Notes: generated by a model not told the origin, from the sequence alone. A DNA stretch of 64,000 nt from an uncultured delta proteobacterium (GCA_963827685.1 CAWHBU010000002.1:480001-544000), one strand, 5' to 3'; counted from the stretch's first letter, positions 5,285-27,190 are shown. Numbers and translations are program-made.

Positions 5285-5342
5285 CTCTTCGTCACTCCTG
5301 CCCCTCTGTCCCTGTTGAGACTGTGCCCGCGATCCTCCTTTT

Positions 5343-5507
5343 TGTCATTGCGAGCGATCCCGCCTTAGCGGGGGAGCGTGCCTGCACGCCGAAGTGCCTG
5401 TCGAAACGCTTTCGTGTAGGTAGGGTTACGGCACGCAGGCGTGGCAATCTCTTCGTTTTCAACTCGTCCTGAGATTGCTTCGGTCGTTTTACTCCCTCGC
5501 AATGACA
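5343..5507. repeat. REP/RPE-like palindromic element TGTCATTGCGAG...CTCGCAATGACA with nested hairpins
   Basis: 12-bp perfect terminal inverted repeat; internal GCAATCTC/GAGATTGC stem; lies between convergent genes. Confidence 0.8.
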
Positions 5508-5527
5508 GGGTGAGGTAATATCAATTT

Positions 5528-5926
5528 CTATTTTGCCTTTCTTGCTGGCGGGGCGGCAAATTCCACGACGGTATAGGCCAATGCCCAGCACTCCTGTTCA
5601 GAATACTGAGTCCATGCGATCATCGAAGAATTGGGAATTCCCTTCGAGATCACTTCAAAGACCTTTTCAATGTTTCCTTTTGCAGTAGGCCATTCTTTCA
5701 AAGGTTTTTGGAAATCGGTTGGCGGAGGCTTGAGGACAGCTCCGGCTGGGCCCTTTCCGTCTCCTTTACTGCCATGACAGGGGAGGCAGGTCTGCTCAAA
5801 AAGTTTCTTACCTTGCTTTAGCAGTTCAGGGGTCTTCTTTGGAGGCCCCGGGTCTTTTGCGAGAGCCGTACCCAGAATGAAAAAAAGAAAAGATCCAGCA
5901 ATCATTAGCCATAATATCTTTCTCAT
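5528..5926 (-). CDS. Periplasmic monoheme cytochrome c
   Basis: Signal peptide, CLPCH heme motif, GDGKGP, distal Met (SSMIAW). Confidence 0.9.
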   Translation of the reverse strand: MRKILWLMIAGSFLFFILGTALAKDPGPPKKTPELLKQGKKLFEQTCLPCHGSKGDGKGPAGAVLKPPPTDFQKPLKEWPTAKGNIEKVFEVISKGIPNSSMIAWTQYSEQECWALAYTVVEFAAPPARKAK

Positions 5927-5986
5927 TTTTGCCTCCTTGGTGATTAGACTTTTCTTAATATGCTTTTTGGGGTAGTGGTGACCCGG

Positions 5987-6070
5987 TCAAACGCGGCGCT
6001 TTATGTCAGCAGGGAGGATACGAAACTCTTTAGCCGCTGAGTCAACGAACTCAACGCTGTACTCAGCCAC
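5987..6070 (-). pseudogene. Truncated RelE/StbE-family toxin (N-terminal 27 aa only)
   Basis: GTG start immediately after the antitoxin stop; hand translation MAEYSVEFVDSAAKEFRILPADIKRRV* resembles RelE N-termini. Confidence 0.7.
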
Positions 6071-6071
6071 T

Positions 6072-6254
6072 TCAGCGCTCCCCTTGCTCCATCTCTGCCT
6101 TCAGCTTACTCCAGGGCACCGTGGCTTCGTTCTTTCGGGACTCAGAGACCAAGACATCGTAGAAGTCCTCCCACAGCTTTCCCCACTCCTCAAGATCAAT
6201 CAGGACCGCTTTCTTTTTGCCAGAATCATCAACCACGAACTGAACTCCTTTCAT
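6072..6254 (-). CDS. Putative type II antitoxin (60 aa)
   Basis: MKGVQFVVDDSGKKKAVLIDLEEW...VPWSKLK, acidic; RBS GAAGGAGG; directly upstream of the RelE-like fragment. Confidence 0.7.
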   Translation of the reverse strand: MKGVQFVVDDSGKKKAVLIDLEEWGKLWEDFYDVLVSESRKNEATVPWSKLKAEMEQGER

Positions 6255-6376
6255 TGAACCCTCCTTCTCGCATGTTGACCTACTGTCGTCTATTATACAA
6301 AGAAGCAGCACAGTGTCTCAAATAAATTATCCACAAGTGAGGAGGATAAAGGACCGGCTAAAGAGGAGAAAATAAA

Positions 6377-6400
6377 AATTTCCCTGTTTGCATAGAAGGC
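6377..6400 (-). repeat. Intergenic spacer repeat, copy A (hairpin part only)
   Basis: aatttccctgtttgcatagaaggc; 18/24 identical to 8629-8652. Confidence 0.55.
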
Positions 6401-6430
6401 GGCAGGGAATTAGCCAAAAGACACGTTATT

Positions 6431-6449
6431 CTGGAGCATCTTGTTGGGT
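6431..6449 (-). other. Partial integron attC-like left arm (R''-L'')
   Basis: Minus strand ACCCAAC-AAGATGCTCCAG, 6 bp after the stop of 6456-7205; right arm absent. Confidence 0.45.
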
Positions 6450-6455
6450 CATCCC

Positions 6456-7205
6456 CTATTCGATCAAATCTCTGTCATCACGTGAGAACTCGACGGGGAC
6501 CGCCTTGAGCCCCAGTCTATCAAGGGCCTCCCTCGTCCCCCTGACGCATGTGTCCGGAGTATGGGGAGCGAGCACCACGGACACAATCAGGTCCGCAAGG
6601 GACACCGGGAGTGAAACATGGTCTGGTATCGGCAGCATCATGTTAGGCCAGTATACGATTCTGAGCTCGTTGTCGAGTCGGAAGTGAAGATCCTTATAGA
6701 AAAAGATTCCCGGCGTTCTGGAGTAGTTGATGGGCTGTCCCCCAGCGTGGTCAAAGTATCTTACGAGCGATATGTCCAGGGGCCAGAACATAGGCGCTTT
6801 GTCACACAGATGCTGCAAACGCCTCACTGTGCTTCTTATTGCTACTCCTGGCGGATTCCTTATATAGGCCTTCCACATTAGATCCAGGTCGCAATCGCTG
6901 ACACACCAGCAACTTATGTATGTCCGGTTTCTATCTCGAATCCGTTTCTGTCGTTCTGTTTCAATCACTTTCGGGGCCCCTACAGATTCAAGCCAGGCAC
7001 CCATGTCAAGCAGTTGCACTCTAGAGTAAGTTCCTTCAAATCTGTCTTGCAAACGGTCTGCCCTGCAAAGATAGAGGGTACTCTTCTTAAGAAGCGATTC
7101 AAATTTCCAGTAGTCCATGTATCTCCAGACGGAAGCATCAAGGTTGTGCGGTAGCTTACATGCAGGATTAACTTCCCTCGGTATTTTCAGGTATTCATCG
7201 CCCAT
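6456..7205 (-). CDS. DUF2971-like protein
   Basis: VWRYMD..KF..LL...LY..R.D...D.FEG; YISCW; MWKAY; GVAIRS; K...F..DNELR. Confidence 0.65.
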   Translation of the reverse strand: MGDEYLKIPREVNPACKLPHNLDASVWRYMDYWKFESLLKKSTLYLCRADRLQDRFEGTYSRVQLLDMGAWLESVGAPKVIETERQKRIRDRNRTYISCWCVSDCDLDLMWKAYIRNPPGVAIRSTVRRLQHLCDKAPMFWPLDISLVRYFDHAGGQPINYSRTPGIFFYKDLHFRLDNELRIVYWPNMMLPIPDHVSLPVSLADLIVSVVLAPHTPDTCVRGTREALDRLGLKAVPVEFSRDDRDLIE

Positions 7206-7249
7206 TTAAGTCCAACCCGTCATTGCATTTTTTTATTTCCGCAACAATT

Positions 7250-7318
7250 TTATGTCTGGTCACAGGAAGTTGTCAATTGCGAGGGTGAATAAGAATATCG
7301 TCTTTTTACGCAGAAGGC
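7250..7318 (-). promoter_or_regulatory. Spacer repeat copy B with sigma70-like promoter
   Basis: Minus strand hairpin, then TTGACA-N18-TAAAAT (the -10 extends a few bases below 7250); 23/29 identical to 8592-8620. Confidence 0.65.
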
Positions 7319-7339
7319 GACAGCATTGGCAAAGCTAGA

Positions 7340-8542
7340 TTATTGGTTGAAGGGGAACAGCCATTCGCCCTCTTCGGAGTAGTTGAAGCTTTTATCATAC
7401 CCAAATTCCCTCCAGATGTAGTCAAACATCGGACGAACAGCTTTTGCCACATCGTGCTTAGTTTCTAAATGCGTATCCTTCGGAACATGGTGCAGTAGAG
7501 GGCGGATGTCTTCGCTTTGGGATACTCGTCCAGATATTCGCTCTGTGCGCATGGAGTATCCCCGTATGTTGAGAAGGGCAGTATGGATGAAGAAGGGGCC
7601 TGAAACACCGGATTCCTTAAGAGAGGTCAAATAACGGTGAAAGGTAGTAATGATCTTACATTCGTACGCAATGTTGGGAATGTCGTAGCGGTTCTCCTGC
7701 ATATCGTAGTGGCTCTGCAGCATGGATGAATTGTACGCTTTGACCTGCCCTAGACCTGTAACCTCAGTCACCGCATATGGCACACGGTAATTGGTTTCGC
7801 ATGCAAACGTAAAGTTTGAACGGCCACTGATCTCCGAACTCAAGCTGCCAGAAGAGTAGTATATCGGTTCGAATAGGGTGTTGAAATTTCCGGACAAACT
7901 GCTTAGGTCCAGTTTAATCGAGGGAACTTCGGGAACAATAACAAGAGCACAGATGCCCTTGTCCTCGATTCCCTTGAAGTACTTCTTGCTCTTTAAGGCG
8001 GCATAGTATCCGTCAATTATCTCCTGCACTTCTTCTTTTCTGGTTGACGGGCCACTGCTACGGAAGAATGTTTCAACGTCGGAGCTCTCCATTGCAATCG
8101 TGATTGTGCGAGTGCGCCTGTAGTATCGATTATCATCGTATTTCACTTGGTGAAGGTAGCGATCTGGCTCGATCTTCAAGATGAGAACCTTTAGGCCATT
8201 GCAAAGAGGGACCTCTCTATCGAAAAGATTCTGGACTCGTGGCGAAATGCCGCTGGTTAGGATCTGGAAGATCTGCTGTTTTACGGCGTCGTCAAATTGG
8301 ATGCCAGATATGCTCGTAGGTATGCCGTTGGTTTCAGCGATGCCGAAAAACAAATAACCTCCCTGCGAATTAGCGAGTGCACTGATGTCTTTGCAGAGCT
8401 CCCGCTTTTCTTTCTCCGTATTCATCTTGAGTTCAATTTTGTATTCGATGTGTGCACTTTCTGGTACATGAAGCAAGACAAGCGACTGGAGATGATTTTC
8501 AGCGATCTCGTGAAGGGGAATACCGTCAAGTACTTGTACCAT
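7340..8542 (-). CDS. Schlafen AlbA_2 domain protein with uncharacterised C-terminal domain
   Basis: ESAHIEYK, KDISALANSQGGYLFFGIAE, YYRR. Confidence 0.85.
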   Translation of the reverse strand: MVQVLDGIPLHEIAENHLQSLVLLHVPESAHIEYKIELKMNTEKEKRELCKDISALANSQGGYLFFGIAETNGIPTSISGIQFDDAVKQQIFQILTSGISPRVQNLFDREVPLCNGLKVLILKIEPDRYLHQVKYDDNRYYRRTRTITIAMESSDVETFFRSSGPSTRKEEVQEIIDGYYAALKSKKYFKGIEDKGICALVIVPEVPSIKLDLSSLSGNFNTLFEPIYYSSGSLSSEISGRSNFTFACETNYRVPYAVTEVTGLGQVKAYNSSMLQSHYDMQENRYDIPNIAYECKIITTFHRYLTSLKESGVSGPFFIHTALLNIRGYSMRTERISGRVSQSEDIRPLLHHVPKDTHLETKHDVAKAVRPMFDYIWREFGYDKSFNYSEEGEWLFPFNQ

Positions 8543-8591
8543 CTCAGACTTCCTTTCTCATTGAAAGCCTAACAGTGTATTTTCTTTTCTA

Positions 8592-8652
8592 TTATGCCTA
8601 GTCAGAGGAAATAATCAATTCCTTTATAAATGTCGCCTTTTACACAGAAGGC
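8592..8652 (-). promoter_or_regulatory. Spacer repeat copy C with sigma70-like promoter
   Basis: Minus strand GCCTT-ctgtgtaa-AAGGC hairpin, then TTGATT-N16-CATAAT; GTTAGGC follows at 8567-8573. Confidence 0.6.
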
Positions 8653-8692
8653 AAAGGACTTTGAGGCTTTCACCTGCAAGGGTCAGTTTTCA

Positions 8693-8767
8693 GTGTAACA
8701 GGACGCACGAGGCGTTTGATAGGCTGCACCGCGGGACGCCAAATCGCTCTCCATGCGCTTGCGGGGC
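8693..8767 (-). other. Degenerate integron attC-like site
   Basis: Minus strand AAGCGCATGGAGAGCGATTTGG...TCAAACGCCTCGTGCG-TCCT-GTTACAC; imperfect stem with unpaired bases on the left arm, directly after a stop codon; R'' degenerate. Confidence 0.6.
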
Positions 8768-9589
8768 TCACTTTTGTTCTTCGATCTCGACAATACCTGG
8801 GAAACGTTCGCAGAGGAACTCCAAGTAGGCGGCTGTGTTCTTGGCTTTCTGGATTTCTCGATCAGATATAGATTTCCGATGCTTTCGAAAACTGTCGAGG
8901 ACAATCTGGTACAGGACACCACGCCATCTTCGTGACGATGTTCCTTTGACTGCAAGAAAGTTCAGAGTCCTCAATGGTTCATTCACTTTCTCACGGGGCA
9001 CCTGGTACCGCAGTAAGGAGACATCCAAGAGGAGCCGCACCGTCTGATCACTGGCAGAGTGCTCCGTGATTCTCTGCAATTCTTGAAAGGCCTGTTCAGT
9101 CATTACGGAACCTGCAAACTCCAATTCGTTCGCCAGCTTGTAGGCATCCAATATTGCTCTTCCTGCGAAACAGGTTTTCCTCGAAACATAGTTTCCATAC
9201 GTGATGGCGCCCCGTAGTGGTAAGCCCTGCTCAAACATGTATTTGCAGAGGATTTGCGCCGAAAGGATCAAAGCATGCCAACTTCGGATATTGTCGGTTA
9301 GATCCCCTCCTGGCTCGATTGGATTCATCAGTATTATCGTATCTGAAAACGCGGCCCAAGCCACTCTTTCGATATAACGAACAAAGAGAATGGCTTCTTG
9401 GTCATCGGAACCAGCGGTCTCACGAACATACTTGATGACGGTTTCTTCAGCATCGACAATTCTGTCGACAACCAAAGCCGCCGCTTTGACCGAATCATTG
9501 TTCTCAAGAAAGCTTTGGTAACCAAGTATGTCAAACAGTCCTAGTATGCCTGTCTGCACCGTTGACGACGCAGTTTTCATTGTCTGCAT
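8768..9589 (-). CDS. Class III nucleotide cyclase-like protein
   Basis: LFDILGY, AFSDTII, LRGAITYG, GRAILDAY align with adenylate/guanylate cyclase core motifs; start uncertain (9580/9589/9604). Confidence 0.65.
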   Translation of the reverse strand: MQTMKTASSTVQTGILGLFDILGYQSFLENNDSVKAAALVVDRIVDAEETVIKYVRETAGSDDQEAILFVRYIERVAWAAFSDTIILMNPIEPGGDLTDNIRSWHALILSAQILCKYMFEQGLPLRGAITYGNYVSRKTCFAGRAILDAYKLANELEFAGSVMTEQAFQELQRITEHSASDQTVRLLLDVSLLRYQVPREKVNEPLRTLNFLAVKGTSSRRWRGVLYQIVLDSFRKHRKSISDREIQKAKNTAAYLEFLCERFPGIVEIEEQK

Positions 9590-9632
9590 TTTCTGGCGAC
9601 CCAAACATTGTATTTTATAGACACTTTATTTC

Positions 9633-10820
9633 CTATAAATGAACTCCTTCCACCATCTTCAGTACGAAAAACTGTAGCTGGTTGCACAGGAAAGTTCCGA
9701 AGGCCTCAGAATCCTCCACCATATTACTCTTAACAAAATAAATCTTCAGGGTTTGAGGGTTGGTGGTATCGATAATCGCACCCTGATTTTTGTCGGCGAT
9801 GGCACCTATCTTTGACAATAAATCAAGGGCATACCGCCGTTGCTCGCTCGTTGGATTCTCTTGTTTGCGAAGCAGGTTGTTAACCATCATTACCAAAAGG
9901 CATACAAACTCGGAAAATGATTCCGTGTTTTTGGATTCCACACGTTGTTCAAGCAACCAGAGCAAGTTGTCCATACATACGAGCGTTCGCACGGCATCCG
10001 GCCAACGAACACGAGCACCACATTTCTCGCACAGCACATCATCAGATGTGCTCCAGACTTTTCTGTCCCCACATTCGGGGCATTTACGAACCATTGCCAT
10101 GTTTCGGATCTGCTTCTGTTCATCCTTGCGCAGTAGCTGATAGAGATAGTCCATATGCTCACGGTTTTTTGGAATACTCATAAACTTTTGAGCCATGGTT
10201 TCCAAATTCGCGACTACCTCCCGGGGCGAACGTCCTTTTGACACCTCGCGGGCGAGGGTGAGTAGGAGGGGCACGTCCAAATTGGTATTCTTGAGGAAGA
10301 ACGATCGGGCCATTTCATCCAGAGTACTTGGGGACCACTGGCAATGCGGACAAGGCATACTCACATAATTGATCAGCCTTCCGCAATTCTGGCAGCTATA
10401 GATTTGCGTGTATGCCGACGGCGCTGTCCCGTCTTCAAATTTCTTTTCGCTGCTAGGGCGCTCACGCTTTAGTTTTTGAAGTTCCCCTTGTAGAAGATGG
10501 CGTTGCTGTTCATCAATTTGAAATTCGCCACTGTTCAACAGCCGTTCCAGAATAACAATAGCGCGGTTTGTAATTACTGCCTTCTTGTAGAAATAGGCCA
10601 ACAGTAAATGTGCTTGAAGTGAGTTGGGATTCCGGTTGACATTAGCCTCTACTGCCCCCTCTGTTTCGACTAGCACCTGACGTGCCTCGTCCAGCCTCCC
10701 CAATTTCTGGAGGGATGATGCCTTTTCGAGCCGCTCGCTAACCTGTTTGAAAAGCATTTCTTCGTACAATAAGTCGGATAGGTTTTGCTGTTTCTTCTTT
10801 CCAAATAGACTAAAGACCAT
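9633..10820 (-). CDS. Hypothetical protein with TPR-like N-terminus and two zinc ribbons
   Basis: LGRLDEA/NPNSLQAHLLLA TPR-like segments; CQNC..CPHC and CPEC..CEKC. Confidence 0.65.
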   Translation of the reverse strand: MVFSLFGKKKQQNLSDLLYEEMLFKQVSERLEKASSLQKLGRLDEARQVLVETEGAVEANVNRNPNSLQAHLLLAYFYKKAVITNRAIVILERLLNSGEFQIDEQQRHLLQGELQKLKRERPSSEKKFEDGTAPSAYTQIYSCQNCGRLINYVSMPCPHCQWSPSTLDEMARSFFLKNTNLDVPLLLTLAREVSKGRSPREVVANLETMAQKFMSIPKNREHMDYLYQLLRKDEQKQIRNMAMVRKCPECGDRKVWSTSDDVLCEKCGARVRWPDAVRTLVCMDNLLWLLEQRVESKNTESFSEFVCLLVMMVNNLLRKQENPTSEQRRYALDLLSKIGAIADKNQGAIIDTTNPQTLKIYFVKSNMVEDSEAFGTFLCNQLQFFVLKMVEGVHL

Positions 10821-10844
10821 GATTCCTCCTTGGCTGGTTGATAT

Positions 10845-11720
10845 TTATCGAATATGTCTCAACAGTTCCTCATAGTTCTTGAGGCGATATTCAGTCAGTG
10901 GGTGAATACACTCTAGACAGAAACGCCCGAATGATAACGATCGATCCCTTAGAATGGTCTTTGCATTCTCGAAATACGAGCCAGTCACGATTTCTTCGAC
11001 TGGATCGATTAGGCCAAACCGAAAAGGGAGGACGCCTGTGTTCAACATAATTGCGATCATCCCCAATGAGTAAATATCGGCTTGCGGTGAAAGCGACCAC
11101 GATCCAGAAAATCGTTCAGGAGCCATGAAGATCAGGGTTCCAGCAGCGTAGGACGTGATCATCTCTTCCCGATTCACAAGCCCTTTACGGGCCTTGGTGT
11201 TTGCAAGCATTTGGTCGCCAGCCAATCGCGAAATGCCCCAGTCCGCGATCTGAACCTTCAAAGGTTTTTTAGATAGAATCAGCACATTTGATGGTTTCAA
11301 GTCTAGATGGAGAAGCGTCCAATGGCGATAAGCATAATCCAATCCGCTGATCAATTGGCGAAGAGTGGACAGTACCTCTTTTTCGCTCAAAGACCCGTGT
11401 TCCTTCAATAGGTCATGTAGACTTCCTTCAAGCATGGGCATGATCGCTGCAAGATGGAAGTCAAGTCGCCCAATCTTGAGCAGAGGCAGAATAGCGGGAT
11501 GGTCGAGGGTTACCCAGTGGTTCAGCTCCTGTTCGACAATTCGTTCGTCGTTTGCGAGGTCGAATGTTTTCACTGCAAGACCGGAGCGATAAATCCAGTC
11601 AAATCCCTCTACAGGATCCTTTTTGAGTAGCCAGACTCGACCCATACCGCCGTCTTTAGCGGAAATTACCTGGTAATAGTGACCATCAAGTAGCACTCGC
11701 TTCGTATGTGTGGTTTCCAA
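10845..11720 (-). CDS. Hanks-type Ser/Thr protein kinase (catalytic domain only)
   Basis: GGMGRVW, AVK, HLDLKPSNVL, IADWG, GT..FMAPE, DIYSLG. Confidence 0.92.
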   Translation of the reverse strand: METTHTKRVLLDGHYYQVISAKDGGMGRVWLLKKDPVEGFDWIYRSGLAVKTFDLANDERIVEQELNHWVTLDHPAILPLLKIGRLDFHLAAIMPMLEGSLHDLLKEHGSLSEKEVLSTLRQLISGLDYAYRHWTLLHLDLKPSNVLILSKKPLKVQIADWGISRLAGDQMLANTKARKGLVNREEMITSYAAGTLIFMAPERFSGSWSLSPQADIYSLGMIAIMLNTGVLPFRFGLIDPVEEIVTGSYFENAKTILRDRSLSFGRFCLECIHPLTEYRLKNYEELLRHIR

Positions 11721-11757
11721 TTGGGACCTCTCAAGGGAAGCAACAAGGGATTTCTAT

Positions 11758-12252
11758 TTAACGACTGAAAAATTTCTTCCCGAACATCATCCCTTTCGGA
11801 TTAACATCAGCAACAATGGTTATATTAAGAACCATTCTAAAATCTGATGCATTAATATCCCCAAAGTATGTTCGAGTATAAATTACAGCCTCCCTATTCC
11901 TTTCCCAAATTGAATAAATAGATCTAGATTTCTCATCTTTCAACTCTTTCGTAGACATCCCATAATCTTCTATTAAATTACGATATACCTTATTCCAAAG
12001 ACCGCTCTCGTCACGAGATTTGGCAAAAGTAGTAATGCAATCCGTTGCAAGACTGATTTTATAGATTTTATTCTCTGTCACACAAACCATCGTTTTCCAA
12101 TTTGCACCCAAATGTTCAACATCTTTTCCACGATATATTTTCTCATCCTCAAAAGCCTGTTCAAAAGTTCTATAATCGGGAACTGAAATTTCTGTTAGTT
12201 CATTCTCAACTTCCAAAACATTTTGCCCAATCTGATAATTTCCGAATTTCAT
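11758..12252 (-). CDS. Hypothetical protein
   Basis: 164-aa AT-rich ORF co-oriented with neighbours; no recognised motif. Confidence 0.6.
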   Translation of the reverse strand: MKFGNYQIGQNVLEVENELTEISVPDYRTFEQAFEDEKIYRGKDVEHLGANWKTMVCVTENKIYKISLATDCITTFAKSRDESGLWNKVYRNLIEDYGMSTKELKDEKSRSIYSIWERNREAVIYTRTYFGDINASDFRMVLNITIVADVNPKGMMFGKKFFSR

Positions 12253-12283
12253 TTTTTGCCTTCCACCCCCATGAGGTTCTCAT

Positions 12284-12805
12284 TTATGCCGATTTTAACC
12301 GTGATGGATACACCGTCGTCTTTACCCTTTGAACGATCTTTGCTAACTCCAAGAGCCCCATACTCTTTAAGGCATCTGTGTCGTCTAGAGACATCCCTAA
12401 TAGATTTTCAACCATCCTGCTTCGGCTAAGATTTAAAGCTTGAGCTAGGATATCCACCTTCTCAAGAATATCCCGATCAATTGTTATAGCTACTTTAATT
12501 CTGGCTTCCTTTCCGAAGCTCACCGAAAAAACCTCGTCCTCAGTAAACGTAACACTATCATCGCTCTTTAAATCTCCGACTCCCATCGCAGCAGGCTCAA
12601 ACCCCAGGACAGTACCGCTAAATGTACCATCAGCCTTCTTTAAAATATTCTTCACAAGAACAGATCGATCATTGTAGTGCAGGATCACTATATTCCCCTC
12701 CTCTACAGGAAGACCAATTTCTAACCGTTTCCCAGGTACGTAGCCGCTATGACCATAAATAATCCCCATCCCCTTTGGGCGCTTTATAAATTTCCACATT
12801 GTCAT
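12284..12805 (-). CDS. Hypothetical protein with C-terminal ribbon-helix-helix (CopG-like) domain
   Basis: KVAITIDRDILEKVDILAQALNLSRSRMVENLL; RBS GGAGG. Confidence 0.65.
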   Translation of the reverse strand: MTMWKFIKRPKGMGIIYGHSGYVPGKRLEIGLPVEEGNIVILHYNDRSVLVKNILKKADGTFSGTVLGFEPAAMGVGDLKSDDSVTFTEDEVFSVSFGKEARIKVAITIDRDILEKVDILAQALNLSRSRMVENLLGMSLDDTDALKSMGLLELAKIVQRVKTTVYPSRLKSA

Positions 12806-13055
12806 ACCTCCATAAACATACTTTAGATTACATACCTTATTCTACTATGTTCAAATTGAATTGTCAATGAAACCATTTGACTAAGCAAAGAAAATGCAAT
12901 TTGACAAACCCCCGGGCATTTGCCGCCTTGAAATTAAACCCTCCTGTCTTGTAACTAACTGTAAACACAGAGCTTTCTGATCTCTAAGGAGTTTTTAAAT
13001 CTAATGCACCTTGAGGGATTCATCCATAGCAGGTGGTGTCGCATGATCGCTTGAT

Positions 13056-13790
13056 TTATTTCCCTTCGTGGCTAATTTCTTCAAGGTATTTTGAGATTTC
13101 CTCGTGGGTGGGTTTTTTAACATTGGTAACGTAATAATCATGGAATAAAAGGTCACCCATCTTATTACATTCGGTTATACCTTCTTCTACAACCTCTCCG
13201 ACAGCTACGTCCATTGGAACTAATATTCCAATCATTGCATAAGTGGCTTCAAAGCTAATCTCTTCAATCTCAGACCTATATTTATGACTGATTGTTTCAA
13301 ATCCTCTTTTTAGGGTATTCCGATGAGTTTCTGAAAATGGGAGACTATTTTTCGAACTGACAATAAAGTAATATCTGAGCTTGTTGTCCTTCCCTCCCAG
13401 TCCTGTTGATATAAACCCACTTTCCTCCTGCAAAAGAACGCTTTCAAGGAAGGTTCTGCATTCCTTCAGAGATAATAAAGCCCAATCTCTCAAATTCCCT
13501 TCTGAAATCTTTAGATATTTTTCAAGTATTCTACACGACTCTGCAGTTCCAAGATGAGCCAAAAGGATTAATATCCTTTTCTTTAGTTCAATAGGGGTAT
13601 GCTTATCAAATAGTTTATCACTCTCCGTTAAGACTTCTTCATAATCGACATTGTCGAAGTCCATTGTTTCTGAGAAACTAAAATATTCCTGCTGTATGGA
13701 CAAATCGATCGGTTCGTCAATTAGGGCAAAGCTGTCCAAAACATCTTTAGAATTTTTGTGATTATCTTTATTTCTTTTCACGTCATTCAT
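13056..13790 (-). CDS. Hypothetical protein
   Basis: Long ORF; helical segment LILLAHLG..ES...LEKYL; STGLGGK. Confidence 0.65.
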   Translation of the reverse strand: MNDVKRNKDNHKNSKDVLDSFALIDEPIDLSIQQEYFSFSETMDFDNVDYEEVLTESDKLFDKHTPIELKKRILILLAHLGTAESCRILEKYLKISEGNLRDWALLSLKECRTFLESVLLQEESGFISTGLGGKDNKLRYYFIVSSKNSLPFSETHRNTLKRGFETISHKYRSEIEEISFEATYAMIGILVPMDVAVGEVVEEGITECNKMGDLLFHDYYVTNVKKPTHEEISKYLEEISHEGK

Positions 13791-13809
13791 AAGGGAGACC
13801 CACAATTAT

Positions 13810-13950
13810 TAGTCAGTCCATAATCGTATGGACACAGAAGACTAAATCCCTCCTCCCCTCCCTTTACAAAACGGATTCCCCTCTTTGGAAAAGAGGGGTT
13901 AGGGGAGATTTTCTGAAGAATATGTCTGCTCAATTATAGACCTCTTAGTT
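13810..13950. repeat. MITE-like palindromic element
   Basis: Imperfect terminal IR (gtccataat / attatagac); internal CCCCTCTTT-GGAA-AAGAGGGG hairpin. Confidence 0.5.
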
Positions 13951-14198
13951 ACTCGTTCATTGCTGAACTGGTTTCGGAAGCCCTGTACTACGAGTAAAAA
14001 TGTACGCCTTTTGGTAAAAACTGTCAAACATCAAAGAAAGTATATGATTTATCGGATAGGTTAAAGGAGGAGGAAAGTATCGGCATCAGAAAATCCCTCC
14101 TGACCCCCCTTTGCCTACCTGCGGCAGGTAGCTGCCAAAGGAGGGAAGGGGATCAGAAAATCCGCCTCTTGGGGTTTAGAAAGGAGGAGTAGGGTGTC

Positions 14199-14513
14199 CT
14201 ATCCGAGTCTCACCGGTTCTTTTGACAGTTTTTCTTCCCGCTCCTTTGCCTCCTTCTCCGTTTCCCATATGGAGATGACCGGGAAGAGTTTTGAGAAGAG
14301 GACGAAAGCCAGAGTGAACCCTGCACAAAGACCCGCCGTCATAGACTACTCCACCCAAGAAGGAGTGTAAGCACCCCGTGCGTATGGAAGACGGGGCTCG
14401 CTGAAGGAGGGGATGATAATGAGGAACCGCTCGAGCCACATCCCGATAATGATGCAAATGGAGGAAACCGTCAGTCCAGAGATGGTGCGCTTGAAAACCA
14501 ATATGGGAAAGGT
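14199..14513 (-). pseudogene. C-terminal fragment of NrfD/ActC-type membrane anchor with in-frame TAG
   Basis: Hand translation IIIGMWLERFLIIIPS..PRLPY..YTPSWVE*SMTAG...FSKLFPVISIWE; TAG at 14346-14348; no 5' part. Confidence 0.8.
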
Positions 14514-22704: not shown

Positions 22705-23436
22705 TTGAGGATATTGCTTCGGTCGGCGTTTACCTATTTTTGCCCGAAGCTTCATTCTAAGGAATCTATTTGCAATCGATCCCATTTCTAAGGGCTTCAG
22801 TGGACGGGTGACAACCTCAACTCTATTCCCACGGATAGCGGCAAAAATAGATTCAAGATTTCTCTCTGCATAGATCAATGAATAGGTGGTTCCCAGCTGA
22901 CAGAGGAAATGAGCATCTGAGTTTCCGATCAACGGAAATCCGAAGGATTGACATACTTCTAAAGCCCTCTGGTTAAAGTTGATCATCGAGGAATAGAAAT
23001 GACAATATTCGAGTGCATCGAAAAGATTCAGGTGCTTCAAAAGGTATCCATTTAATGAATAGGTTCCCGGGAAATAGGGGTGGGGAGCCACGATCAAGGT
23101 TTCCGGGCGACGCAGTTTTGAAAGGGAGAGAAAATCTGAACATGTTTTATGCGGGGGAGGGTTCAAAACGAGGACATGACGTCTCTGAATCGTCATCTCT
23201 ATGCCGGGGATAAGGAGGACACCCCTTTTCTGTGCGTAGGATAAAAGGTCCTGATCGAAGGTCATCTGGTGATGATTGGTGATGGAAATCACGTCATAAC
23301 TTTCATCAGCAGCTTTCGAGATAAGTTCTTTAGCCGTATATCGTACGCGGTCAAGAGGATCTTCAGCGGTGTGAAGGTGTAGATCAGCCTTAAGGGGTTT
23401 CAGCCTTTTCATTCTAACGATAGATTCTTTCACCAT
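22624..23436 (-). CDS. PHP-domain metal-dependent phosphoesterase
   Basis: DLHLHT, SITNH, PGIE, APHP, GNSDAH; last ~26 codons lie within the MITE. Confidence 0.85.
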   Translation of the reverse strand: MVKESIVRMKRLKPLKADLHLHTAEDPLDRVRYTAKELISKAADESYDVISITNHHQMTFDQDLLSYAQKRGVLLIPGIEMTIQRRHVLVLNPPPHKTCSDFLSLSKLRRPETLIVAPHPYFPGTYSLNGYLLKHLNLFDALEYCHFYSSMINFNQRALEVCQSFGFPLIGNSDAHFLCQLGTTYSLIYAERNLESIFAAIRGNRVEVVTRPLKPLEMGSIANRFLRMKLRAKIGKRRPKQYPQLKLPGHRPGLPGHVVASGERAKEIWS

Positions 23437-23828
23437 CTCTTAATCCCAACACGAATATTTCAATACATGGAGCCCTACGGGTAAGCCCATAAGCATGTTT
23501 GGCGAGCAGGTCGGAAAGTTTTTCTTCTCGCATTCATCCATGGATAAGGTTTAGGTCTACAGCGTAGGCAGATATATATCTTATAAGACTTCACAGGCAT
23601 GATGTCAAATTTCAGAAGGATGATTGAGGATATTGGGCTCATGGAATTAGTTACAACTTTTCCAAACATATTCTTTTACATTTTAGGACAAAATTTGTCA
23701 TGCCTGGTACAGAATGTATTACGGAATCTTCATTTTGGAAAATTTTTTTTATTGTTCAAAACTTGGAAAAGCTTGTAATATTAGTCTATTAAGAGATTCT
23801 GGCTGCCTTCTCAATACACCTTCAAATT

Positions 23829-23844
23829 TGGCACCAAATATGCG
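23829..23844 (+). promoter_or_regulatory. Putative sigma54 promoter
   Basis: TGGCAC-CAAAT-ATGC with exact GG-N10-GC spacing; palindrome GACAAAATTTGTC at 23687-23699. Confidence 0.5.
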
Positions 23845-23946
23845 AATAACAACAAAAGCTAAATATCGGGTGCAAGCACGAAGACGCTTGCCTAAGGGCT
23901 TTGAACAAACACTTAATCGATATAACTCGGTTATAACGTTGAAAAA

Positions 23947-24309
23947 ATGACGATTCCTGGTTTAGATCTCATTTCAAATCTTCGGAAATCCCGTCCCAAA
24001 CAAGTACCCGAACGCCCCCATTTGTTTATGGCTGGTCTCAATCAGAAGGTCTTTCTTAATCAGTGGGGTGAACCAGAAACGCAGGTGACTCTTGAGCAAC
24101 TTGGAAAATTGAATAAACTGGGAACAATGTTCCTAATTACCGATCCTACCGAAGCAGCCAACCTCTCCGTCTGGATTTATGAAAAGAAGAATAGCGTTCT
24201 CCTTTTTACAAAAGAAAAACTGGTCTCTCATTTCAGTTGTAAGAAATTCAGACAGAGTTTGGAAGAAAGAGGGGATACCAATCTTTCATCGGTCTCCAGA
24301 ATCTTGTAA
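23947..24309 (+). CDS. Hypothetical protein
   Basis: 120-aa ORF; WGEPE...VWIYEK pattern. Confidence 0.55.
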   Translation: MTIPGLDLISNLRKSRPKQVPERPHLFMAGLNQKVFLNQWGEPETQVTLEQLGKLNKLGTMFLITDPTEAANLSVWIYEKKNSVLLFTKEKLVSHFSCKKFRQSLEERGDTNLSSVSRIL

Positions 24310-24412: not shown

Positions 24413-27190
24413 TCATGAAGATGCCAATCCGCCGTATTTCTCCGCGCGCCATCGAAAAGCCTCCTCTCCTCCTTGCATGGTGGTCTTTATGAGGTCCCGT
24501 ATCAGACGGTCGTCGATAGATGCCCGGCCGATGATATGGGCGTGATCATCTCGTACCTCCAAAGGCATGACGAGTTCGGCATCGCCGATCACGGGAATGG
24601 TGGCGTCATTTGTCGTCAAAATGACCTGGTGTTGGGGACTTTGGTCTTTTAACCCTTTTTGCTCCCTCAGCATCTGAAGAACCTCTTCGCGCAGGGATCG
24701 GTTGTCGAGGTAATCATCCGGTTGATCGATGACAAGAATCCGGTTTTCCAGTCCAAACAAGAAAAGCAGAACGGCTATAGCACCCTGACCCACCGACAGA
24801 TGGTCGAGGGACCGATATTGACCATCAATCCTCAGTTCCAATCGAAGGGAATCTTGAGGAATAAGTGTTTCCAACGCAAGGAGTCGTGATTCCTCAGCGG
24901 TTAGCCAATTGATCAAGGAATCTGCCATCTCAGGCTTGAGGCCGAAACGCATTTGGACTTCCTTGCTTCCTGCACGTACCGCTTCGGCGAGCGCGATGCC
25001 ATCTGTCGCTTCGGGAACGATGAGCCGATCGATCGCATCCTGAGATATGTTAGATCCCTTTAAGAGTAATGAGAGCTGGTCTTTGTAACTTCCTTTTTGA
25101 CCCTTCAGCTCCACTTTGAGATGGAGTCGGCCATTGAGAGATTCCGCAATGGCATCCGCTCTTTCCGTGCGCAATCTGTTCTGAGTGTCTCTGCAATCTC
25201 TGATTTGCTGAAGAAGTCCCTGCCGTTTCTGTCTGAGAGTCTTCAGGCGATCTTCGATCCCGTTAAGTTCTCCGATAAGGGATGCCAAGGAAGTTCTTTC
25301 TTCTTTTAATCTTGAGAGTGGGTCTTGACCTGCTGGTTTCTTTTGTGCGTCCTGTTTCATTCGCTTGCTTTCTTCCTCCAGATGACGAAGCTTCTCTTGG
25401 CAACGCATATCCAGGCGCGTTAGACTCTGTACCGCCTGCTCAAAAAGAGTTGTCTCGTCATCGAGGACTACCTTCAGGCTTTCCTGAAGGACAGCGGAGA
25501 CTTTTACACCCTCTTGCACGATAGCTGTTTCCCTGCTTTGGGCGTCAAGTAGGTTCCGGTGAGCCGTTTCCAGAGAAGCCAGTAGATTAAGACGCCTTTT
25601 ATCAGAATCCGCCAACCCACTCCTGAAGGTATGTATCGCACTCTGTAAGCATTCCCCTACACTGCGAAGATCAGTCACCTCTTTTGGCTTTTCTGTAGCT
25701 TGACTTTTGTGGTTTTCAATCTCCTGATCGATTTTCTTGAGCCGTTGACAATATTCTTCTCGTTTCGTCAGCTTTGCCTGCAGATCCAGTATTGCCGCTG
25801 CGTTGGTGTTGAGTGATTCCGTAGCCTTGCCAACAGCGTCTGCGTCTTTGCGAGCCTCTTCGCCAATCAGCTCATCCAGGAGCGCAAGTCGATGCGCCTC
25901 ACTTGCAGAAACGGTGGTGATCTCTCGTTGGCCAAAAAATGTGAGTCCACCGCCAGGACTGAGAAGCTCAGAGGGGCTCACTGAAAGGGATTTTTCAGGG
26001 CTGACTTGAAATGTACGGGGTTCTTCGCCCCACACTCGGGAGATGCGATACTGACGAATTTTTCCCTCCCGAACGGGCCTGTCCAGGATGACCTCCACCT
26101 TGCCACCAGCACCTAAAGCATGACGAACAAGCCCCTCGCGGGAGGATTGATCCGAGGAGGGCGTGATGGCAAAGGCATACCGGAGACTTTCGAGGATGGC
26201 GGATTTGCCCACACCCTTCCCCCCGATCATTACGTTGAGGTCTTGGTTCCAAGAAATGCTCAGATTTCCCAGGAAGCCCGATCCTGAGATGACCATGCTT
26301 CGGATTCTCGGATGAATCGCCGAAGGAATCCCACCAATGGACAGACGGGTCTGCGGATCATGGAGTGCCATTCGCAGGGCGTCTAAATTCGTTGCGCTGA
26401 GTTTTAGGTAGGTTGCCCGGAGGAGTCCATCGGTTCGATATTGCGTTCCGATCTCTTCGATTCGTTTCGAGTTGGAGAATTCGACAAAAGCCATTTGATC
26501 CCAAAAGTTTTCCGACAGAACGCCGGTAGACTGGACCTTCTTTTTTTCTTTTTCCGGGCAATATTCGATAGCATCAGGTTTTATCTCCAGGAGGAGTTTG
26601 GCGGCCTCCTCGGCCGTGAGACCCCTGCAGAAACCATTGGCCTGATCGGGGTGCGGAAGGACCAACAAACAGTTGAACCGGCTTCGCAAGTCCTTCAGGG
26701 CATCTGCCAAGTTGGTTTTCAACTCAATATCCCGATGAGAGCCATGGTTGTCAAACAAAGGGGCGCCTGGGTTTTTATCAAGGGATCGAAGAAAGGTGTT
26801 CAAATCCTTCAGGTCGGTATCTCCGGAGAAGATGGCCAATATATGAAGGCCATATTTGCCCTGTTTGAACGTCATCTCAATCCCGGGCAAGAGCGTCACA
26901 CCACGGTTCGTGGCCTTTGCAGCAGTTATCTCAAACCATTCTATGTTTACTCCATTGTAGTCTGTGATGGCGGCGACGGAAATCCCTTGAGATGCAAGTT
27001 GTTCGACGTAGGCGTCAATAAGGCCTTTCCCGTCTTCACGCTTCGCCCCCTTCGGGGGCACAAAAGCCGGCACATTAGGACTATGTAGATGAAGGTCGAG
27101 CCGGTGCCAAGTAGCTCCCCTATTAGAGTTTTGCAATGGTTCGGTCGGCCTTCCTTCTAAGGGCAGGCGGCCGTGTTTCAATGAGTTCAT
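24413..27190 (-). CDS. PHP domain + coiled-coil ABC/SMC-type ATPase (TrlF/Ppl-like), motif-degenerate
   Basis: DLHLHSP, Walker A GGKGVGKS, long coiled coil, LSVGQ, IDQPDDYLDN, IPVIGDAE, GGEEAF..R..KY. Confidence 0.85.
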   Translation of the reverse strand: MNSLKHGRLPLEGRPTEPLQNSNRGATWHRLDLHLHSPNVPAFVPPKGAKREDGKGLIDAYVEQLASQGISVAAITDYNGVNIEWFEITAAKATNRGVTLLPGIEMTFKQGKYGLHILAIFSGDTDLKDLNTFLRSLDKNPGAPLFDNHGSHRDIELKTNLADALKDLRSRFNCLLVLPHPDQANGFCRGLTAEEAAKLLLEIKPDAIEYCPEKEKKKVQSTGVLSENFWDQMAFVEFSNSKRIEEIGTQYRTDGLLRATYLKLSATNLDALRMALHDPQTRLSIGGIPSAIHPRIRSMVISGSGFLGNLSISWNQDLNVMIGGKGVGKSAILESLRYAFAITPSSDQSSREGLVRHALGAGGKVEVILDRPVREGKIRQYRISRVWGEEPRTFQVSPEKSLSVSPSELLSPGGGLTFFGQREITTVSASEAHRLALLDELIGEEARKDADAVGKATESLNTNAAAILDLQAKLTKREEYCQRLKKIDQEIENHKSQATEKPKEVTDLRSVGECLQSAIHTFRSGLADSDKRRLNLLASLETAHRNLLDAQSRETAIVQEGVKVSAVLQESLKVVLDDETTLFEQAVQSLTRLDMRCQEKLRHLEEESKRMKQDAQKKPAGQDPLSRLKEERTSLASLIGELNGIEDRLKTLRQKRQGLLQQIRDCRDTQNRLRTERADAIAESLNGRLHLKVELKGQKGSYKDQLSLLLKGSNISQDAIDRLIVPEATDGIALAEAVRAGSKEVQMRFGLKPEMADSLINWLTAEESRLLALETLIPQDSLRLELRIDGQYRSLDHLSVGQGAIAVLLFLFGLENRILVIDQPDDYLDNRSLREEVLQMLREQKGLKDQSPQHQVILTTNDATIPVIGDAELVMPLEVRDDHAHIIGRASIDDRLIRDLIKTTMQGGEEAFRWRAEKYGGLASS

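Follow-up and report, generated by a model that had tools for sequence, protein, structure and literature searches.

Kinase-based phage defense is known from few cases, and infection sensing by such kinases is mostly open. The staphylococcal kinase Stk2 is reportedly anti-phage, its kinase serving as the effector once infection has been sensed. Both Stk2 and PD-T4-6, a kinase of E. coli, are annotated as single-gene systems and carry eukaryotic-like Ser/Thr kinase domains, and kinase domains are also found in Mad6 (MADS) and PglW (BREX), which are large proteins in multi-gene methylation systems. PycC of the Pycsar system, in which a cyclase is combined with an effector activated by cNMP, has a class III cyclase fold. 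Prokaryotic Schlafen nucleases (pSlfns) defend against phages, share the active-site motif Ex4(E/D)xK and in 17.2% of cases carry unannotated fusions, according to PMC13056530. DUF2971 proteins are predicted to have an ADP-ribosyltransferase fold (PMC12522546), and an antiphage function has been validated for one such protein, Aristaios (PMC11381338). Here, we analyze a locus of five genes (g1 to g5) that invites comparison with these systems. It lies in a 64,000-nt stretch of DNA from an uncultured delta proteobacterium (GCA_963827685.1 CAWHBU010000002.1:480001-544000), hereafter the window, whose positions are used as coordinates throughout. Taken as one "system", the five genes are not a real unit. 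Rather, g1 and g2, which encode a kinase and a TPR/zinc-ribbon partner, are a conserved, tightly coupled two-gene unit, and we consider it likely that the surrounding stretch (~5930-14230) is a horizontally acquired island of independent modules, not one system.

The five genes of the locus are as follows:

10845-11720, minus strand: g1, 291 amino acids (aa), a Ser/Thr protein kinase consisting of the kinase domain alone
9633-10820, minus strand: g2, 395 aa, TPR-like helices and a pair of zinc ribbons, then a C-terminal domain of no recognized fold
8768-9604, minus strand: g3, 278 aa, a predicted class III nucleotidyl-cyclase fold with a C-terminal helical extension
7340-8542, minus strand: g4, 400 aa, a Schlafen SLFN_AlbA_2 domain followed by a C-terminal region of ~250 aa
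6456-7205, minus strand: g5, 249 aa, PADLOC PDC-S31-like, from a family of ~248 aa

All five are real genes and not chance open reading frames (ORFs), because each has many homologues or a clear family match. The initial annotation of this DNA had described five co-oriented genes, the first three nearly contiguous (gaps under ~45 bp), and five minus-strand ORFs are indeed found at its limits, with measured gaps of 24 bp between g1 and g2 and 28 bp between g2 and g3 (43 bp when g3 starts at the ATG of the 273-aa database copy P0001), followed by 225 bp between g3 and g4 and 134 bp between g4 and g5. Its domain guesses are for the most part right: kinase, TPR/zinc-ribbon and Schlafen stood, the cyclase-like assignment held at the level of the fold only, and the DUF2971-like assignment was borne out only indirectly, by a PDC-S31 model match, Pfam DUF2971 giving none. 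A promoter/terminator scan of the locus did not rise above shuffled expectation (10 against 13.0 expected; 5 against 8.0 expected), and the promoter-like sites that it placed 5' of g5 (7276-7247, 11/12 matches), g4 and u2 are taken as hints only; a strong promoter-like site in the stretch of three further ORFs of the island (u1 to u3) is at 12867-12839.

The coupling of g1 and g2 emerges from a scan of metagenome contigs with the g2 alignment, which yielded 30 loci collapsing to 25 distinct ones. In 24 of the 30, the gene immediately upstream of g2 is a g1-type kinase; 22 of these match at E < 1e-40, another is a fragment at a contig edge, and the last matches only weakly (4e-12). The six loci without a kinase match comprise four with less than 100 bp of upstream sequence, one broken g2 fragment and one variant (L044). 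In many loci, the kinase stop codon overlaps the g2 start codon. Identity to the window copy co-varies between the kinase and g2 (Spearman 0.71 across 15 non-independent loci), and the pair is also found in G229, a GTDB genome of the same phylum. No third conserved gene stands beside the pair, since neighbors are common only to redundant loci among the 30. Prediction of a g1-g2 complex (alignments A3 and A2) gave a score of 0.13, for a mark of 0.32, and is counted as evidence neither way.

The kinase itself matches Pfam Pkinase with an E-value of 8.9e-28 (97.8 bits, gathering cut-off 31.7). Across the 16 sequences of alignment A3, which contains the window g1 and 15 kinases from homologous loci, the invariant elements are GGMG.VW, AVKTF (K51), E65, HLDLKPxN (D140, K142, N145), DWG (D160) and PER; we take these to be the Gly-rich loop, the VAIK lysine, the alphaC glutamate, the HxDxKxxN motif, the DFG aspartate and the APE motif. 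Because these elements are invariant, g1 is predicted to be catalytically intact and should be an active kinase. Its PADLOC matches include mad6 (1.6e-34), PD-T4-6 (up to 2.4e-30) and PglW (2.7e-13), those to mad6 and PD-T4-6 being confined to the kinase domain. The PD-T4-6 match covers the generic kinase domain only (8-212 of 311) and has no curated cut-off, and an unrelated FHA-kinase in locus L036 scores far higher; a Stk2 model is not among the 25 PADLOC matches listed for g1. The window g1 has the same type of kinase domain as Stk2 and PD-T4-6 and the same proposed effector logic, but differs from these single-gene systems in being a bare 291-aa kinase domain paired with the ~390-aa g2. 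Mad6 and PglW were considered as identities for g1 and rejected, as it scores 48.5 bits with NCBIfam MAD6 (cut-off 460) and 44.9 bits with PglW (cut-off 990). The likeness to these large proteins is in the kinase domain, and the multi-gene methylation partners that accompany them are not found at this locus.

The partner, g2, belongs to a family of 105 homologue clusters of ~390 aa, with 36-90% identity among the matches listed. N-terminal TPR-like helices (aa ~19-126) are followed by two CxxC...CxxC zinc ribbons and a further C-terminal domain. Seven of the eight cysteines are invariant (C143, C146, C157 and C160, together with C250, C264 and C267), and the eighth, C247, is present in at least 90% of sequences. 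The AlphaFold2 model is well predicted (pLDDT 87.6, pTM 0.81). In the VIA wide fold search, the whole model matched solved structures over the TPR part only (~19-126, best Z 9.4), the structures matched being TPR proteins, and Foldseek with the whole model returned nothing at E <= 1e-3; these whole-model searches barely probed the zinc-ribbon/C-terminal part, and a new fold is not claimed. PADLOC has no model with a match of note to g2, the ESM Atlas gives unnamed clusters only, and relatives of g2 are found neither in viral contigs nor in PLSDB plasmids. With TPR helices first and a Cys4 zinc module after them, g2 echoes the architecture of LapB/YciM, which combines TPRs with a rubredoxin-type zinc domain, and the g2 profile weakly matches the LapB TPRs (E 0.013-0.09). 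This likeness covers the TPR part alone, however, and g2 differs from LapB/YciM in having two zinc ribbons and a further domain and in being linked to a kinase. No description of a kinase and TPR/zinc-ribbon defense pair was found in PADLOC v2.0.0 or in full-text literature searches directed at such a pair. Hence the g1-g2 pair is apparently undescribed, and kinase-based conflict systems as such are already known.

The pair occurs in varied surroundings. Flanks of the defense or mobile type include:

L034: a complete type I restriction-modification set, HsdR/M/S
L042: HmaC, an ARP-associated restriction endonuclease (REase-ARP) and HipA
L023: an Mrr-type endonuclease, with a DUF2971 gene 2.2 kb downstream
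L036: IS21 and Mu transposases and further kinases
L045: a resolvase
L031: a group II intron
L043: a g5 homologue (31% identity) starting 30 bp after g2
L032, 2588-13289: the pair embedded between DUF5691, DUF5682 and VWA_CoxE genes

Other flanks are:

L029: plain housekeeping genes, with ribonucleotide reductase and aminotransferase
L026: plain housekeeping genes, with acetyl-CoA carboxylase and mannosidase
L025: plain housekeeping genes

Such variable flanks tentatively suggest a mobile accessory or defense module. Full-length g2 is found in 2 of the 401 genomes of a phylum sample, the window's own genome included, and one homologue is placed in the Burkholderiales by its source name, so that the family also occurs at a distance.

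Several of these loci have features worth recording for their own sake. In the variant L044 (203-3242), an N-terminus with a weak DnaJ match is joined to the zinc-ribbon/C-terminal part of g2, and a leucine-rich-repeat protein, not a kinase, precedes it. In L032, the DUF5691/DUF5682/VWA_CoxE set may be a multi-gene system in its own right. Among the loci retrieved, L020 has the pair most closely related to that of the window, with a g2 that is 73% identical. Upstream in L020 (1-5791) are a 576-aa kinase-TPR fusion, two Clp-like AAA+ ATPases and ClpP, and downstream (8502-9976) are an ADP-ribosylglycohydrolase and a PNP_UDP_1 phosphorylase; these neighbors may form another conflict-type cluster.

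With regard to function, g2 would be the sensor or regulator, its TPR part binding a protein cue and thereby holding or releasing the kinase. As the effector, g1 would then act as Stk2 does and halt infection by phosphorylating proteins of the host or the phage. In an alternative mode of action, g1 and g2 would arrest growth like a toxin-antitoxin pair. It is also conceivable that the pair is not anti-phage at all, being instead an ordinary signaling or stress module, or a HipBA-like toxin-antitoxin system kept by addiction, whose place in the island is incidental. Such a role would agree with the housekeeping surroundings of the pair in L026, L029 and L025, with the lack of a PADLOC model for g2 and the high conservation of its family, and with the overlap of the kinase stop and g2 start codons, a feature typical of toxin-antitoxin pairs and other tightly coupled operons. 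Nevertheless, full-length g2 is present in only one of the 400 other phylum-sample genomes and is absent from the same-genus genomes searched, the pair recurs in distant lineages, and it has variable flanks, among them restriction-modification, Hma, Mrr, HipA, transposase and PDC-S31 genes. Because the pair is patchy, found in distant lineages and variably flanked, mobile accessory or defense genes fit it better than core signaling does, and we regard an ordinary module as rather doubtful.

The third gene, g3, has no Pfam or NCBIfam match, and none of the 5027 PADLOC models matches it at E <= 0.01, which means that there is no PycC model match either. Judged by its sequence relatives (103 homologue clusters; 6463 representatives at E <= 1e-3 in a profile search, of which 469 at E <= 1e-30), g3 represents a large family of lone single-domain proteins, since all but two of the 150 matches listed span 246-302 aa, with nearly all of the family at 250-280 aa. 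No relatives were found in viral contigs or in PLSDB plasmids. The AlphaFold2 model (pLDDT 91.4) places g3 with the class III adenylyl/guanylyl cyclases, both by Foldseek (E ~1e-6; 2.5e-6) and by VIA, in which the top 50 entries are all class III cyclases (Z 14.1, 168-170 residues aligned, rmsd 3.6-4.7 A). The nearest named clusters of the ESM Atlas are Guanylate_cyc (0.87) and DUF2652 (0.86), both below the 0.9 level of a lead. Across 49 diverse family sequences, DILGYQ (D25), FSDTI (D88) and G127 are invariant, and L128, P129, R131 and G132, which make up a GLPxRG stretch with G127, are present in at least 90%. In the secondary structure of the model, D25 lies at the end of strand 1 and D88 in the strand 2-3 hairpin. 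We take these residues to be the canonical metal-binding aspartates of class III cyclases, an assignment made by position in the fold, not by residue-level superposition. On the strength of the model, the g3 family is an unannotated branch of the nucleotide-cyclase fold, and the most likely activity of g3 is nucleotidyl transfer, with a nucleotide and two metals bound.

Alternatively, g3 could have degenerated from a cyclase and serve in binding or as a structural protein, with the fold retained but no part in nucleotide signaling as an enzyme. Consistent with degeneration, none of the 49 family members is matched by Pfam Guanylate_cyc even at E <= 1, sequence and profile searches found no matches of g3 to solved cyclases or other solved chains, and by eye the helix after G148 does not appear to display the Asn...Arg pair of canonical class III cyclases. 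However, D25 and D88, at the canonical metal positions, are invariant in the same 49 diverse sequences, and R131 and several glycines are invariant or present in at least 90% of them. Conservation of such residues is usual for active sites, and a degenerate protein is in our estimation unlikely. We therefore continue to treat g3 as a putative stand-alone cyclase-fold enzyme that would keep both metal-binding aspartates. Pycsar, with whose PycC it shares the class III cyclase fold, was considered and rejected as an identity for the locus: there is no PADLOC match of g3, no conserved adjacent effector (neighbors vary across 10 loci) and no cyclic-nucleotide-binding domain in the locus. Since g3 has no conserved partner gene, a Pycsar-like signal-effector scheme is unsupported.

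The Schlafen assignment of g4 is based on a match to SLFN_AlbA_2 at 6.4e-18 (65.8 bits, cut-off 25.3) over aa 28-146. Its translation contains E28-SAHI-E33-Y-K35, that is Ex4ExK, which fits the Ex4(E/D)xK active-site motif, and no Pfam match below E 0.16 was found for the C-terminal 231 aa. A role of prokaryotic Schlafen nucleases in phage defense, which the initial annotation had put forward as known, agrees with what PMC13056530 reports. The architecture of g4 is one that this source describes for pSlfn defense proteins, in which the SLFN_AlbA_2 domain with its motif is fused to an accessory domain, and with no Pfam family for its C-terminal ~250 aa g4 would belong to the pSlfns with unannotated fusions (PMC13056530). 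By analogy, g4 most likely works like published pSlfn proteins, as a Schlafen-type RNase effector with the C-terminal region as its sensor. Matches to g4 are found in 12 of the 401 phylum-sample genomes (the window's own included), about five of them full-length, and none of 14 loci with g4 homologues contains g1, g2, g3 or g5 within ~1.5 kb.

The last gene, g5, matches the PADLOC PDC-S31 model PDLC04993 at 8.8e-14 over profile positions 12-225 of 245 (214 positions), a model for which PADLOC has no curated cut-off. It also matches phrog_34615 (2.4e-20), a phage-protein family of unknown function, and has 153 homologue clusters. This PDC-S31 match is its likeness to DUF2971 proteins, given that other PDC-S31 models match a genuine DUF2971 protein in L023. 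It differs from them in that Pfam DUF2971 (PF11185) does not match g5 at E <= 1, and no Pfam domains, DUF2971 included, occur in its homologues among the 120 clusters listed of the 153; profile comparison of g5 with one DUF2971 protein gave E 0.023 and a probability of 2%. Thus, g5 would be a single-gene PDC-S31-type candidate, a putative member of a PADLOC candidate family. Matches occur in 6 of the 401 phylum-sample genomes, the window's own included.

Taken together, g3, g4 and g5 appear to be independent, stand-alone and sporadically distributed families. A check of neighborhood co-occurrence, as the initial annotation had proposed, singled out g1 and g2 (24 of 30 loci), a pairing which that annotation did not foresee, and did not associate g3 or g4 with the others. 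Of the two schemes it had offered, a hotspot of independent defense genes is in accord with an 8.3-kb island that is missing from relatives and with the sporadic, stand-alone occurrence of g3, g4 and g5 elsewhere. The other, a cascade from sensor to cyclic nucleotide to effector, was not supported. A single system of all five genes, with infection sensed by the kinase and TPR protein, a cyclic nucleotide made by g3 and the Schlafen and/or PDC-S31-like proteins activated as effectors, is very improbable. In its favor, the genes are co-oriented with close spacing from g1 to g3, g3 has a cyclase fold with both metal-binding aspartates, and cyclase-plus-effector defense as in Pycsar is a known logic. 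Against it, none of the 30 g2 loci, of which 20 include 840 bp or more on the downstream side of g2, contains a g3 or g4 homologue, no other gene of the five is beside g3 in any of 10 genomic loci or near g4 in any of 14, no cyclic-nucleotide-binding domain (Pfam) was detected in g2, g4, g5 or elsewhere in the locus, and g4 and g5 are set apart by gaps of 225 bp and 134 bp and by weak promoter-like sites 5' of each.

We return to the island of independent modules, whose genes probably have an anti-phage role; this role and all of the biochemistry are inferred. It is possible, and we advance it tentatively, that the pair is a new, horizontally mobile two-gene anti-phage system in which g2 gates the kinase, and that the g3 family is a second stand-alone immune enzyme, making or consuming a nucleotide without a dedicated effector gene. 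It should be noted that several observations weigh against this interpretation of the island and its genes. The g2-g3 spacing in this genome is just 28-43 bp, so co-transcription and a local functional link between the two are possible. Besides the window, g5-like or DUF2971 genes are near the pair in two loci (L043 and L023), an association that may go beyond coincidence. Some of the pair loci (L026, L029, L025) have housekeeping genes as their surroundings. There is no PADLOC model for g2, and viral contigs and plasmids yielded no relatives of either g2 or g3. Finally, the neighbors of g3 in 10 loci include GDP-mannose dehydratases, a KAP NTPase, DUF2513 and Sel1 proteins, IS200 and rve transposases, UvrB and LeuRS; because they are mostly housekeeping genes or transposases, a defense role for g3 is weakly based.

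The limits of the island and its remaining features are as follows:

5528-5926, minus strand: left boundary, a cytochrome c gene with Cytochrome_CBB3 and Cytochrom_C matches
5990-6070, minus strand: a 27-codon stub, 1 nt after the antitoxin-like ORF, with no Pfam match
6075-6254, minus strand: an antitoxin-like ORF of 60 aa at the left island edge, RelB-like (E 0.0011) and PhdYeFM (E 0.013), both sub-threshold
11758-12252, minus strand: u1, an island ORF 5' of the kinase
12284-12805, minus strand: u2, with a weak ribbon-helix-helix (RHH)/DUF6364 C-terminus (DUF6364 1.8e-5)
13056-13805, minus strand: u3, an island ORF 5' of the kinase
14250-14490, minus strand: right boundary, what is left of the C-terminal end of an NrfD-like gene; relatives have the intact gene (431-441 aa)

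Window positions ~5930-14230 are an insertion of ~8.3 kb at a variable site, where the NrfD-like gene has been reduced to a stub. Four of five relatives (G010, G004, G006 and G002) show synteny with the left flank as far as the cytochrome c gene, and in the fifth (G008) this flank is split over several contigs. What follows this gene differs among them: a 431-aa NrfD-like gene ~160 bp later in G006, a biotin carboxylase gene between the cytochrome c and NrfD-like genes in G002, and UbiA and cytochrome oxidase genes at the same site in G010 and G004. The NrfD-like 3' end in the window (14250-14490) shows 85% identity to G006:C68 and 82% to G002:C12, each of which lies beside a cytochrome c gene, and the intact NrfD-like genes of relatives match NrfD and are adjoined by a gene for a 4Fe-4S protein. 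Since the rest of the NrfD-like gene is missing from the window, a second rearrangement to the right of the island is implied. In 12 same-genus genomes, window DNA from 6300 to 11800 was not found beyond matches of <=130 bp. Contigs from four DNA runs carry fragments of the island genes at ~92-100% identity, and in one DNA run, joints from 5812 to 14241/14251 would fit an island-less form, but with sides of 32 and 22 nt these joints are too weak to serve as evidence. Searches for a tRNA gene, an Rfam family or flanking direct repeats at the island ends found none.

Within the island, G+C is 0.38-0.40 over the u1-u3 stretch compared with 0.46-0.50 over g1-g5, and homologues of u1-u3 were found in none of the 30 g2 loci. 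The 27-codon stub is possibly the truncated start of a RelE/ParE-type toxin, and at the edge of the island 5990-6254 would then probably represent a toxin-antitoxin pair in decay. Because G+C differs across the island, and because the antitoxin-like ORF with its stub and u1-u3 stand beside g1-g5, a mosaic assembly is indicated.

Two further features of the window may be mentioned. Short intergenic repeats at ~5300-5520 and ~13840-14120, the latter set at the right island edge, have dozens of matches of 70-100% across same-genus genomes and very high contig depth in metagenome runs; they form inverted repeats (13887-13916 / 14086-14115) and look REP-like. Farther along, a 925-aa protein whose ATPase signatures are AAA_21, AAA_23 and SMC_N is encoded at 24413-27190 (minus strand), beside a low-G+C stretch at 23000-24000, and may be another defense-type gene.

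The locus carries a caution for the analysis of similar islands, as co-orientation and tight spacing within an island did not mean one system here. It is also a natural example of a Schlafen nuclease with a putative sensor domain of no known family, and the product of g3 could reveal a new nucleotide signal or depletion mechanism. The g1-g2 pair would add a system that PADLOC v2.0.0 does not detect, and such a conserved pair of kinase and sensor, with its compact and well-predicted partner protein, would be a tractable model for how kinases sense infection.

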